DNA of 64,000 bases, taken from Rhynchobatus australiae (lineage: Eukaryota). A program made the position numbers and the translations under genes. Each line of letters opens with the position of its first letter. The stretch's first letter is position 1. The notes under the pieces are model-generated. The model worked only from the letters and a program-made list of their open reading frames with translations. It ran no database searches and had not been told where the DNA came from. Shown piece by piece: positions 38,267 through 59,099 of this stretch. Location: positions 7,905,753 to 7,969,752 of the forward strand of contig JAUZTB010000068.1 in the NCBI GenBank assembly GCA_034780895.1. Direction: 5' to 3'.

Positions 38267-38660
<394 letters not shown>

Positions 38661-51204: not shown

Positions 51205-51347
51205 TGTATGACAACCTCCAATGCCTGTCCTAATGATACAGGTTTGTTGTTCAGGTAGTTGAAGTCTAATTGATGACTGAGGTAAGATGTGGCCTCCAGC
51301 AAACGATTGAATTCTTGCTCTACCATCTCATCTTTTTCTTTGGGAAC
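51205..51347 (-). CDS. KDM1A: KDM1A exon 9: [47 protein letters not shown]
   Basis: 143 nt, gctcag / gtgagt. Confidence 0.98.
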
Positions 51348-51799
51348 CTGAGCATCATAAATAAGACACCATTGTCACCCAAAAGAAATAAGACAGGATC
51401 ATTTATTTATACAATAATTAATAATACCAAGCTTTCCAATTAATTAGTGTTTAGCAGTAGTTTGCGCTTATGGGGTTGCACACCCAAAAATAGGTCACAA
51501 ATCTCTGAAGATTTTTTTTTACAGTTTTCCAAATGTGGAAAGAACTGCCTATTTTTGAGGCTCCTATTGGCTGAAGTAAATACATTCAATGCACATGACA
51601 AAATACCAAAATAAAGTAAAATATCAGTCGTCGTGACATCAACACACAAAAACTATAATGTGTGATACAGTTCACATGTAGGAAGAGTGAATTTGGAAAC
51701 TCAACCACTAAGGAAAACTGAGGTTCCTCAAACCCTTAGGGCTCCATGGTAAAGTCACTGAATAATCATGTCAACCTGTCATTTTCTGGGCTAGAATTA

Positions 51800-52095
51800 A
51801 AACATAATGGAAATACTCAGCTCATCAAGAGGCATCTGTGGGGAGAGGAAGGCAATTAATGCTTGAGGTCAACGACCTGTATCACAACTTGGAAAAGTTA
51901 CCAGTAAAACATGTTTAAGAGGTGCAATAGTTGAATCTTCAAACCAAATTTACTACCAACTTTTTGCCATTCTGATGAAAGGTCATCAACTTGAAACTTT
52001 AATTCTGCTTCTCCTCCAGAGATGGTGCTTAACCTGCTGAACATTCCATCATATTTTACTTCAGATTTCCAGGATCTGCAGTATTTTGCATCTGG
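51800..52095. mobile_element. Palindromic Penelope-derived repeat with hammerhead-like core (51972-52003)
   Basis: CTGATGAaaggtcatcaacttGAAActttaat, then tctccagagatggtgcttaacctgctga. Confidence 0.65.
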
Positions 52096-53084
52096 GAAGA
52101 TAAATCTTATCCACACTTCAGTCTGGCTTAACTTTGATATTATTTTAAATGCTAGTGATTAGTTCCCATTTTTGTGCAAGAATGTGGGGAGATTTTGCAA
52201 CTGCAAGTGGTGTGCCAGATAAGCATAAAGTAATCCAAATAACAAAATAAAGCTGATCAGAGGTCCTTTTAACCAAATGCAGCTTATCCACTTGGTAATA
52301 AACAATCCCTATCCTGGAAAACATCCTGTGCTTTTGTCTCCAAACCTTAACAAATGCAATGTTTGTCAGAAGATGTATGTTGGACACTAAATTGGCAATA
52401 AAAATGTAAAACCACGTCACACAAGGAGGACAACAACAGTGGTCACCACGAGCCACGACAAACCAGAGGACCTCAACTCAAGGTTAACGTTCTTTTGAAC
52501 ACTCAGAGAGGAAGATAAAGAATTTTAACATTACTAATTAATTTAGGTAAAGAAATTCTGGATTAGTTAAACATCTAATGCATCCTTTTGAAATGAAATC
52601 CAGAATTGGGATGAGAGGTCATGAACAGTCTATTAACTTTTATCGTCAATATTGTCTGAAATGTCCCAATGAAGGGAATTCTGACCAATAAACTGCAGTT
52701 ATAATAATAAACATTCTACTAAAACCCAATGCAATTTTACCCTATTGTAACTGTTCTCTTATAAATTCTCCTGTCCCCATATTTTCAGCTGCAAATTACA
52801 AAGCTGAGTTTACAACCTTCTAATTGTCTAGATGAACACATCTCCAGAAACACTTAAACTTGTCACCATCAAGGAAAATGCAGCCATGCTACAGTCCTTG
52901 TGGTAAAGGTATTCTGACACTGCTATGAGTTAGTGAGTCCCAGTGTGTTGCTCCAGCAATGATAAAGAAATGCTATTATATCTCCAAGCCAAGATGGTAT
53001 GCAAATTAGTGAGGATATCATGGTGTCCATAAATGTATCTACCTCCTTTGGTCAAGGAGGCAGGGACTGCAGACAGAGTAATAC

Positions 53085-53635
53085 AGCATGAAAACCACAA
53101 TCCCTTCAGCAAAGCTTGTCCATGCCACCCACCAAGCCAGTCCCATTCGCCCATGTTTGGCCCATATCCCTCTAAACCCGTCCTATCCTTGTACTTATCC
53201 AAATGTCTCTTAAATGCTGTTATTGTACCTGCCTCAACCATTTCTTCTGGCAGCTCGTTCCGTACATGCACCACCCTCTGCCTGAAGAAGTTGCCCCTGC
53301 AGTCCCTTTTAAATCTTTCCCCTATCACCTTAAATCTATGCCTTCTAGGTTTTAAGCTTCCCTTCCCTGGGAATAAAGATTGCGTGTATTCACCTTATAT
53401 CTACCCCTCACAATTTTATACACCTCTATAAGGTCACCCCTCAATTTCCTATGTTCTAAGGAATTAAGTCCTAGCCTGCCCAACCTCTCCCTACAACTCT
53501 GGCCCTCAGGTCCTGACAGCATCCTCATAAATCTTCTCTGCACTCTTTCCAGGTTAATGATGCCTTTCCAATAACCAAAACTGTACACAGTACTCCAAGT
53601 GCAGTCTCACCAATGCCTGGTACAACAGCAACATG
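53085..53635 (-). mobile_element. CR1 LINE 3' end in KDM1A intron 8
   Basis: LERVQRRFMRMLSG...LRGDLIEVYKIVRG and RGNFFRQRVVHVRNELPEEMVEAGTITAFKRHLDKY. Confidence 0.92.
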
Positions 53636-54484
53636 TGTGTCGGTAAGCGATAGAATCTTGAGGGAGTTGATGGGAATATGGGAAGAATAAAATGAGATGA
53701 CTATAAATGGGTGTTTGATGGTTGCATAGACTTGGTGAACTAAGAGTTATTTCCATGTTGCATCACTCTCTGACTCTAGGTACCAGGCAATGACCTTCAA
53801 CAAGGGGGAGAGAGTGTAGCCACCTCCCCTTACATTCAATGTTATTACCATCTCCAAGTACAGCCTCACCAACATCTTGTACAACTACAACATAACAACC
53901 TTTGGAGGTCCTGTCAAAGGAGCTATGGCAACTTGCTGGTGTGCATTTTGTAACCGATGTACATTGCAGCTGCAATGCACCCACAATGAGTGCAACTAAA
54001 TGTTCGGTGTGGTGGGTAGAAGCCAATGGAGCTACTTTATCCTTGACAGTGATGAGTTTCTTGAGTGTTTCTGGAGATGCACTCATCCTGAATGAAGCAA
54101 CTGATTCTTTTTCTGGGTCTCAAAATACCATAAATTTTCCTATTTAAAGAGATTTTAAAGTAACAAAAATAAGGACAGAAAACTGAACTTTAAAAAAAGA
54201 ATGGGGAATGAATGATCTCCACCTTAATAGTCAAGTTATATCCGGTTTTAGTTCAATCCTGGTTTGCTCTTTGTGTACAACATCAGAAATTCCCCAGTAT
54301 TACCTACACAATTGCCAGTGATTAGATAAAATTGATGCAACTCAGATCACTGTTATAGTGTACACTTTGTAATCAGCTAAAATCCTAACATCCTCAAACA
54401 ACTGCAAATATCTTGCACTCCCAAATATCTGTTGCTGTGAGATTTCATAATATATGCCTAATTAGTAAAAGTAAAAATACGTAC

Positions 54485-54502
54485 GTTTGTGCATCTTTCT
54501 CC
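54485..54502 (-). CDS. KDM1A: Candidate alternative microexon 8a-like (GERCTN)
   Basis: Minus strand reads cactaataaatctttcccctttttttctatgtcattgctgatgtttggaatctgatcctaatgaag|GGAGAAAGATGCACAAAC|gtacgt. It is 18 nt, phase 0-0, and lies between NGQA and VPKE. Confidence 0.8.
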
Positions 54503-57478
54503 CTTCATTAGGATCAGATTCCAAACATCAGCAATGACATAGAAAAAAAGGGGAAAGATTTATTAGTGTCTTGACCCCGTGACCACATTTTGAAGTATTC
54601 AACTTTTAAAGAAATTCCTTATCACACCTCTCAAGACAACTCAAAATACTTAATATGCAATTAATTACTTGCTTAATCACCACTACCACGTAGATTAAAT
54701 ATGGCAGCCACTTTGCTTAAGACAAAACACCACAAAACAGTAATGAAAATTAATAAGTAGTTAATCAAATTCTTGGAGCCTTGTTTGAGAGAACATTGGT
54801 CAGCACCAAACTGGGGGATCTTTCTGCTTTACCCTCATATTGTGATAGTAGTTTATGGTTAGTAACTTGGAAGGCAATCAGCACTTCGAGTTTTCCATCT
54901 CACCTCAAAAGGTGGCATCTCTAACAAAGTAGCATTTGCTCAGTATTGTACTGTAATATCTGACCAGAATCCGCATTTAGGTTTAAATCACTTCTGACTC
55001 AAAAGCAAGAGGGTTATGAGTAAGATCATGTTCAATTCAATGAAAATCAAAATATTTCTCATTCTTTCAATGAGCATGTGCAATACAGTGCATACCAGGT
55101 TGAAAAGGTTTAACTCAAGGTTATAATTTCACAAGTAATTCTCAAGGATCTTACTAACCAGTGAACATACAGTTAGAATATTTATAATTAATCAGCTGAT
55201 GAAAATCATTAACCTACAAGGTTAAATGTTTCTCTCTTTATTGATGCTGCTTGGCCTGCTGAGTATTTCAAGCTTTTTGCTTTTATTTTATAAATATCAT
55301 AGTACAATGTTCCCAAACTACAAAGGATATTATTCTTTAGATCATAATTCTAGATAAAGTCTCCTAGATGTGGCTAATTTAGGATTTTCAGCTCATAATA
55401 CAACAGTGGAAAAAAAATTATGACAACAGAACCAGTTAATTTTTAGGAGTCTTACTACTACTTAAATTATTTTCAGTAACTTTACTTATTATAAAGTAAA
55501 TCTNNNNNNNNNNNNNNNNNNNNNNNNNNNNNNNNNNNNNNNNNNNNNNNNNNNNNNNNNNNNNNNNNNNNNNNNNNNNNNNNNNNNNNNNNNNNNNNNN
55601 NNNNNNNNNNNNNNNNNNNNNNNNNNNNNNNNNNNNNNNNNNNNNNNNNNNNNNNNNNNNNNNNNNNNNNNNNNNNNNNNNNNNNNNNNNNNNNNNNNNN
55701 NNNNNNNNNNNNNNNNNNNNNNNNNNNNNNNNNNNNNNNNNNNNNNNNNNNNNNNNNNNNNNNNNNNNNNNNNNNNNNNNNNNNNNNNNNNNNNNNNNNN
55801 NNNNNNNNNNNNNNNNNNNNNNNNNNNNNNNNNNNNNNNNNNNNNNNNNNNNNNNNNNNNNNNNNNNNNNNNNNNNNNNNNNNNNNNNNNNNNNNNNNNN
55901 NNNNNNNNNNNNNNNNNNNNNNNNNNNNNNNNNNNNNNNNNNNNNNNNNNNNNNNNNNNNNNNNNNNNNNNNNNNNNNNNNNNNNNNNNNNNNNNNNNNN
56001 NNNNNNNNNNNNNNNNNNNNNNNNNNNNNNNNNNNNNNNNNNNNNNNNNNNNNNNNNNNNNNNNNNNNNNNNNNNNNNNNNNNNNNNNNNNNNNNNNNNN
56101 NNNNNNNNNNNNNNNNNNNNNNNNNNNNNNNNNNNNNNNNNNNNNNNNNNNNNNNNNNNNNNNNNNNNNNNNNNNNNNNNNNNNNNNNNNNNNNNNNNNN
56201 NNNNNNNNNNNNNNNNNNNNNNNNNNNNNNNNNNNNNNNNNNNNNNNNNNNNNNNNNNNNNNNNNNNNNNNNNNNNNNNNNNNNNNNNNNNNNNNNNNNN
56301 NNNNNNNNNNNNNNNNNNNNNNACATAGGAATGTATATTTATACATGATGCAAGTGATAGAAGTGATATGCTCAATAAAAACTTTGTAACCAAAACATGA
56401 AAGGATTTGAGGTTCAATCAAACATTAAAACTTGTATGCTCTTACATAGCTACAAGATTTCACCTTGGAGTTGAACAGAACCCAGTATTAATGCAACAGA
56501 TACTCCACGGAAGTGTTAGTGTCTCTGTCAAGAACTGCCCATAGTGCCAGGAGCACGGCACTGGTGCTGGCTTTACCTGGCAGTAGCAACTTCCACAGTG
56601 CTGTCATTGCTAGTACTCTGGGAGGCAGGGTGGGTCTCCACCCAGTCCTGTGCAGAAATGGAGACTTTCCTAACTGGGTGCCTCTGTGGCATCAAACTGT
56701 GTGTCATCCCAAATCAGCCTGGTAAATAGGGTAGTTGGGACTAGAGCTGAGTTGACAGCGCATACAGCAGAGTAGAAGCACTGGGGAAACTAGGGGAGCA
56801 TTCTCACACAATCCATTATAGCATGTTTACACTCTCAGCTCTGCCAGTCAGACAGACTTCTATTTATACAGCTTCCTCAACCAGAATTAAAACATTTAAA
56901 GCAGCTGCACAGTAGCTGCTACTATACTGCTTACACCAATGGCTACCAAGTACTTGACTGGAAACCAAAGGTCTCTGAAATTTATTTTGTTTTTTAGCAG
57001 AAGCAGCTATGGCCACTATCCATCAACAAATAAGCTGTCAGGCCATCACTTTTATAACAACAGCTAACTCTCAGAGCCACATGTCAGGGCCATTTGCAGC
57101 CACGTTTGTACCAAGGTACGGAGAGATCAGCAGGAGACTGTGCTGGTCAGCAGGCAAATGGCACTCGACTAGCATAGGAGTGGTTCGGGGACTGCTGAGA
57201 TATCAATATTAGCCAATTAAGATGATAGAGGATCAAACTTGTCCATTTGGCCCCACCCAAGCCCCACTGTTGTCATGGGCTAGCTCCCAACCTATCAAGT
57301 ACTCCAGTCAATGATGTAATAGTGAATCCTGAAATAACTAACTGAAATTCCCACTGAGAAGCACTCATTTTCCACAGGCTGCATGGCAATATATAGCAGA
57401 TGTTTGAACCAAAGGATAAATTAACTAGATACATGCAAGTATAGAAAATCATGTTATATTTGCAATCATCATCCATCA

Positions 57479-57655
<177 letters not shown>

Positions 57656-58813: not shown

Positions 58814-58990
<177 letters not shown>

Positions 58991-59099
58991 TCAGATACTT
59001 TTCCAGTTACCGAACAAAGAAAACACAGATCAATCAATATCAAAGGATGACATCCATATGAACAGCTTGCCCTAACCTAATCACACTTAAGTACCATTT

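Follow-up and report, generated by a model that had tools for sequence, protein, structure and literature searches.

KDM1A and its 18-nt microexon in Rhynchobatus australiae

The window, a stretch of 64,000 nucleotides of Rhynchobatus australiae DNA, contains KDM1A (LSD1) on the minus strand. Coding exons were located by tblastn with three shark proteins, and the same search found none of the 5' exons of the gene within the 64-kb window (Table 1). The two exons on which this analysis centers are nearly invariant relative to human LSD1: the upstream one is identical to residues 339–369 at 31/31 positions, and the downstream one to residues 370–416 at 46/47. Translation of the former ends in ...YEANGQA at position 57491, followed by the donor gtaagt, and the latter opens with VPKEK from position 51347. 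Searching the protein of this downstream exon yielded eight hits at 100% identity among the 120 best listed, all from cartilaginous fishes, in agreement with the origin that an earlier note had considered probable for this DNA from the letters alone.

The intron between these exons spans 6143 nt, including an 819-nt gap, and harbors an 18-nt exon that is bounded on the minus strand by aag and gtacgt, is rich in purines (14 of 18 bases) and is flanked on both sides by phase 0 junctions. The earlier note had proposed such an exon, encoding GERCTN in phase 0-0, at the position of the mammalian exon 8a; all of its coordinates check, and the 18-mer is that of a published exon. In PDB 2X0L, the residues matching the two flanking exons (217–247 and 252–298) are separated by four extra residues, which marks the mammalian exon 8a position. 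For a 22-letter degenerate pattern comprising the exon and its splice dinucleotides, the expected number of occurrences in the intron is 1e-8, a post hoc figure since the pattern was derived from the exon itself; the pattern matched the 2.23-Gb genome of the species only once, at 54485..54502.

Table 1 Features of KDM1A and of the microexon in the window
Feature	Position	Strand	Description
KDM1A/LSD1 coding exons	about 60417 to 23091	-	tblastn, three shark proteins; approximately residues 196–838 of a shark orthologue
KDM1A counterpart of human exon 8	57491..57585	-	residues 339–369
Branch-point-like cactaat	54562..54568	-	predicted branch A at about -61 relative to the microexon
Distal polypyrimidine tract	54541..54558	-	18/18 pyrimidines, unbroken; about 40–56 nt upstream of the microexon
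Single UGC	54531..54533	-	31–29 nt upstream of the microexon; not above chance
Acceptor aag	54503..54505	-	proximal pyrimidine content 0.44, lowest of 15 gene acceptors (next 0.56)
18-nt exon 8a-like microexon of KDM1A	54485..54502	-	phase 0-0; GERCTN
Donor gtacgt	54479..54484	-	U1 pairing weakest among 14 gene donors (crude duplex energy)
KDM1A counterpart of human exon 9	51205..51347	-	from residue 370; FNYL variant, common to chondrichthyans

Three other features of the gene were recorded. A 100-N scaffold gap interrupts a coding exon at 38339–38600, and the same 24 nt stand on both of its sides; this is an assembly artefact and would break gene prediction there. Very high-copy sequences, matched by tens of thousands of contigs and probably interspersed repeats, occupy about 53040–53950, 51900–52130 and 55090–55310 in the same intron as the microexon. 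In the acceptor region 58975–59014, which belongs to the exon with its end at 58877, AGs at 58978 and 58975 lie 3 nt apart and may form a tandem acceptor.

Published exon and its inclusion in proteins

Both the microexon and its antiquity have already been published, as has its occurrence in cartilaginous fishes. The accessible parts of Tamaoki et al. 2020 (PMC7244555) state the GERCTN peptide for the elephant shark genome and GERCTS for the zebrafish 8a-like exon, which bears out the GERCTS-like teleost insert mentioned in the earlier note. Olivares-Costa et al. 2023 (PMC10721905, Supplementary Data 5), in its accessible parts, tabulates the exon for gar, zebrafish, medaka, whale shark, elephant shark, coelacanth, lamprey and hagfish, proposes an origin in the vertebrate ancestor, interprets its distribution by divergence and repeated loss of a single ancestral exon, and scores the mammalian regulatory sequences as absent in both chondrichthyans examined. 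The antiquity suggested in the earlier note is thus upheld, but its date in the jawed-vertebrate ancestor is younger than the published range, which includes lamprey and hagfish.

Comparison with that table revealed that the 18-mer of the window is identical, letter for letter and at synonymous positions, to those of Rhincodon typus and Callorhinchus milii. The published fish exon and the one described here agree in gene, intron, length, phase and peptide, and both lack UGCUGC; besides intron length (6143 nt in the window versus 8819 and 2835 nt in the two published chondrichthyans), only the species differs. No description of the distal branch point and pyrimidine tract was found in the accessible parts of PMC7244555 or PMC10721905. 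From lamprey to teleosts the peptide is strongly conserved, which argues for selection on the peptide; the coelacanth has GERCNN.

The 18-mer might be an AG..GT segment that arose in the intron by chance, or a non-functional remnant in Rhynchobatus australiae. This deserves consideration since the host intron contains 235 in-frame AG..GT segments of 3–51 nt, 19 of them 18 nt long, and AG/GT boundaries alone are consequently no evidence of an exon; both the acceptor and the donor are, moreover, weak. However, identity to the whale shark and elephant shark exons extends to synonymous positions, and the exon is included in annotated proteins of 12 elasmobranch species. Published identity and the presence of GERCTN in annotated shark and ray proteins together constitute independent proof of the exon; the chance-segment explanation was rejected on these grounds, and we regard chance or decay as extremely improbable.

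Inclusion levels were inferred from the annotation of related species. In a search of sequencing runs with a mostly intronic 6.6-kb query, which may conceal spliced RNA, no RNA run was among those listed, a result uninformative about expression. Of 373 proteins, 38 have FNYL, the marker of the downstream exon, and removal of eight sea urchin sequences left 30 chondrichthyan proteins, 28 of which contain GERCTN. Twelve shark and ray species contribute 25 named proteins to this set; the five Scyliorhinus torazame isoforms (X1–X5) are all among them, as is one whale shark protein in which GERCTN follows a different upstream stretch. The other three are open reading frames on Logan contigs of 2.5–2.9 kb, which should be spliced transcripts judging by their length. 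The only two proteins without it are both elephant-shark UniRef models. None of the 25 named proteins skips the microexon, although shark isoforms also occur in large mixed clusters, of which 15 members each are listed, and skipping isoforms may be hidden there.

In lampreys, the insert is present in 14 of the 15 cluster members listed and missing from one further lamprey model, as it is from a hagfish model. Among 27 fish proteins listed from two clusters, three lack it; these are NCBI teleost isoforms, indicating that the exon is alternative in fish. A first search gave 97 proteins with a readable junction, 81 of them without insert, many being UniRef-only teleost models; since zebrafish almost always includes the exon, absence from such a model is weak evidence for skipping. 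The expectation of the earlier note that gene predictors would easily overlook so small an exon applies to many UniRef-only models, but not to the NCBI models of sharks and rays, which include it. In zebrafish, according to the accessible parts of PMC7244555, every stage and every organ tested expresses variants that carry the insert, clones without it account for 2–6%, and the protein with the insert (LSD1+8al) has demethylase activity. An exon confined to neurons should leave many skipping isoforms in the annotation, and the small number seen argues against such restriction. The gene name kdm1a is absent from the 12 supplementary files of a zebrafish neural-microexon paper (PMC12626424), a weak observation.

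Splice signals and mode of inclusion

Upstream of the microexon, the branch-point-like cactaat and the strong pyrimidine tract that the earlier note had described are both confirmed in the sequence. The tract is perfect at -53 (15/15 pyrimidines). Within the 98 nt upstream, AG occurs only at -69 and -2, leaving an AG-free zone of 65 nt, the second-longest in a comparison of the microexon with 14 other KDM1A acceptors (the first-exon acceptor and one unlocated acceptor being excluded). The corresponding comparison of donors ranked 14 of them by U1 duplex energy, with three others left out. At the acceptor of the downstream exon (51348–51430), an 82-nt AG-free zone was observed together with pyrimidines concentrated at a distance and, at -7, a UGC; an AG-free zone, a distant tract and a UGC are thus not confined to the microexon. 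Contigs of two sequencing runs, one near-identical to the window and the other from a related organism, extend through the intron, and none of their listed joints is a splice joint. The sequence from the related organism differs at 14 of 801 nt, yet the microexon, its splice sites, the UGC and the branch motif are all unchanged, and each of the three differences within the pyrimidine tract leaves a pyrimidine. With a probability of 0.73 for zero changes in 18 nt, the unchanged exon in this contig is no evidence of conservation.

The earlier note read these signals as those of a neural microexon controlled by SRRM3/4, and in its full form this explanation holds that the cartilaginous-fish exon is neural or neural-biased and SRRM3/4-dependent, a functional forerunner of neuroLSD1, with the ubiquity in zebrafish derived. 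SRRM3/4 microexons share with the exon of the window a length of 3–27 nt in a multiple of 3, a distant branch point and tract, a weak AG and a UGC in the spacer. The accessible parts of 10.1101/2024.09.17.613571 describe the same layout, with a UGC between the remote branch point and tract and an AG in a weak context, and relative to the other KDM1A acceptors the distant-tract architecture holds for this exon: its AG-free zone is second-longest and its proximal pyrimidine content the lowest, and a UGC lies between the perfect distal tract and the AG. A UGC is indeed present at 54533–54531, as the earlier note had pointed out. As a signature of SRRM3/4 it is uninformative, however, since 43–49% of 18,683 random windows also have one nearby and 9 of the 14 other KDM1A acceptors have one within 60 nt, even if, in the accessible parts of the same source, SRRM3/4 targets do not strictly require a UGC. 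The mammalian element UGCUGC is absent from the 300 nt upstream of the microexon, YCAY counts near it (4 and 5) lie at the gene average of 4.9 per 300 nt, and no clear antisense trap was seen: the longest exact downstream antisense match is 10 nt at a distance of about 1.8 kb, and 19 of 210 control 38-mers reach at least 10 nt (exact pairing only). Whereas SRRM3/4 microexons are said to have strong donors (10.1101/2024.09.17.613571, accessible parts), the donor here is weak by the crude U1 energy, and no prevalent skipped form is apparent in shark annotation. The distant branch point itself may be a plain steric need of a very short exon. Together with the zebrafish version being included in every organ tested (PMC7244555, accessible parts), these observations make neural, SRRM3/4-restricted inclusion unlikely.

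We favor the reading that the majority of transcripts in every tissue likely contain the GERCTN exon and that skipping is minor, the exon being a default part of fish LSD1 and not a neural switch (probability roughly 0.8, judged from sequence and annotation). Within 18 nt there would be too little room to engage the donor and an adjacent branch site at once, which may account for the placement of the branch point and the perfect pyrimidine tract 40–65 nt upstream, across the AG-free spacer. The purine-rich microexon probably acts as an SR-protein enhancer, and in combination with the distal branch point and tract this would allow default inclusion in the absence of a neuron-specific factor. 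In the protein, the exon adds GERCTN between the equivalents of human Ala369 and Val370, and the six residues would extend a part of the amine-oxidase domain that tolerates insertions. Demethylase activity is presumably kept with the insert, by analogy to zebrafish LSD1+8al, and the insert probably tunes contacts with partners or substrates.

Exon 8a of mammals and inserts beyond vertebrates

The mammalian and turtle neuroLSD1 exon 8a interrupts the same junction of the amine-oxidase domain and, like the exon in the window, preserves the frame. The two differ in that exon 8a has 12 nt, encodes DTVK, is accompanied by UGCUGC and is neuron-restricted, whereas the exon of the window has 18 nt, encodes GERCTN, lacks UGCUGC and is likely included by default. 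CoREST and HDAC1/2 are released when the second residue of DTVK is phosphorylated (accessible parts of the review PMC8624367). The earlier note suggested that the six-residue form may be ancestral and pointed out that, like the phosphorylatable DTVK, it contains a Thr; in its full form this explanation derives DTVK from the six-residue exon, with the Thr kept as a phosphorylation site.

Intron and phase are common to the GERCTN and DTVK exons, and a single ancestral exon is also the reading given in the accessible parts of PMC10721905. Sequence comparison revealed no likeness between them beyond that of shuffles: aligned without gaps, the 12-mer agrees with the 18-mer at 5/12 positions at best, a score reached by 96% of shuffles, and the best in-frame match is again 5/12, reached by 60%. 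The coelacanth, nearest to tetrapods, has no Thr in its GERCNN insert. As neither this insert nor the DNA of the two exons, with likeness not above that of shuffles, agrees with a conserved phosphorylation site, the equivalence of the Thr in GERCTN to the phosphorylated Thr of DTVK was rejected. Unrelated short inserts at the same junction, namely FQ in the tailed frog, VWT (optional) in starfish, Q in sea urchins and VS (optional) in octopus, render an independent origin of DTVK plausible; those with initial Val or final Gln may be shifted splice sites. Insertions are tolerated at the LSD1 junction, and DTVK may have arisen as an exon of its own. Twelve bases can neither prove nor exclude homology, and we consider descent of DTVK from the six-residue exon, with its Thr retained, possible, with the odds against it.

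At the protein level, inserts at this junction were also found outside vertebrates. The 15 listed of 47 amphioxus cluster isoforms comprise nine with TAGCQTQ followed by EGRCKL, three with EGRCKL alone and three with neither; EGRCKL equals GERCTN in length and has Arg-Cys in common with it. In hemichordates, NGLSVL is present in 3/6 isoforms of Ptychodera and SGQSVL in 2/3 of Saccoglossus. The accessible parts of PMC7244555 say that the fish peptide extends to amphioxus, but in the figure legend hagfish is named and amphioxus records are absent. A full-text literature search, with most subscription journals outside its scope, found no paper containing EGRCKL, one unrelated paper containing NGLSVL and, in the accessible parts of its sources, no description of an amphioxus KDM1A microexon. 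From these protein sequences, an optional 18-nt exon at the LSD1 junction may predate vertebrates, which we judge at slightly below even odds. A joint reading, in which a pre-vertebrate exon is SRRM3/4-controlled and neural-biased in sharks, becomes default in teleosts and is replaced independently by DTVK in amniotes, appears quite improbable.

The finding adds one species to the published table and matters only for the correct annotation of KDM1A. Neural bias of the exon in sharks would mean that the neuronal switch of LSD1 is older than bony vertebrates; the evidence leans the other way.
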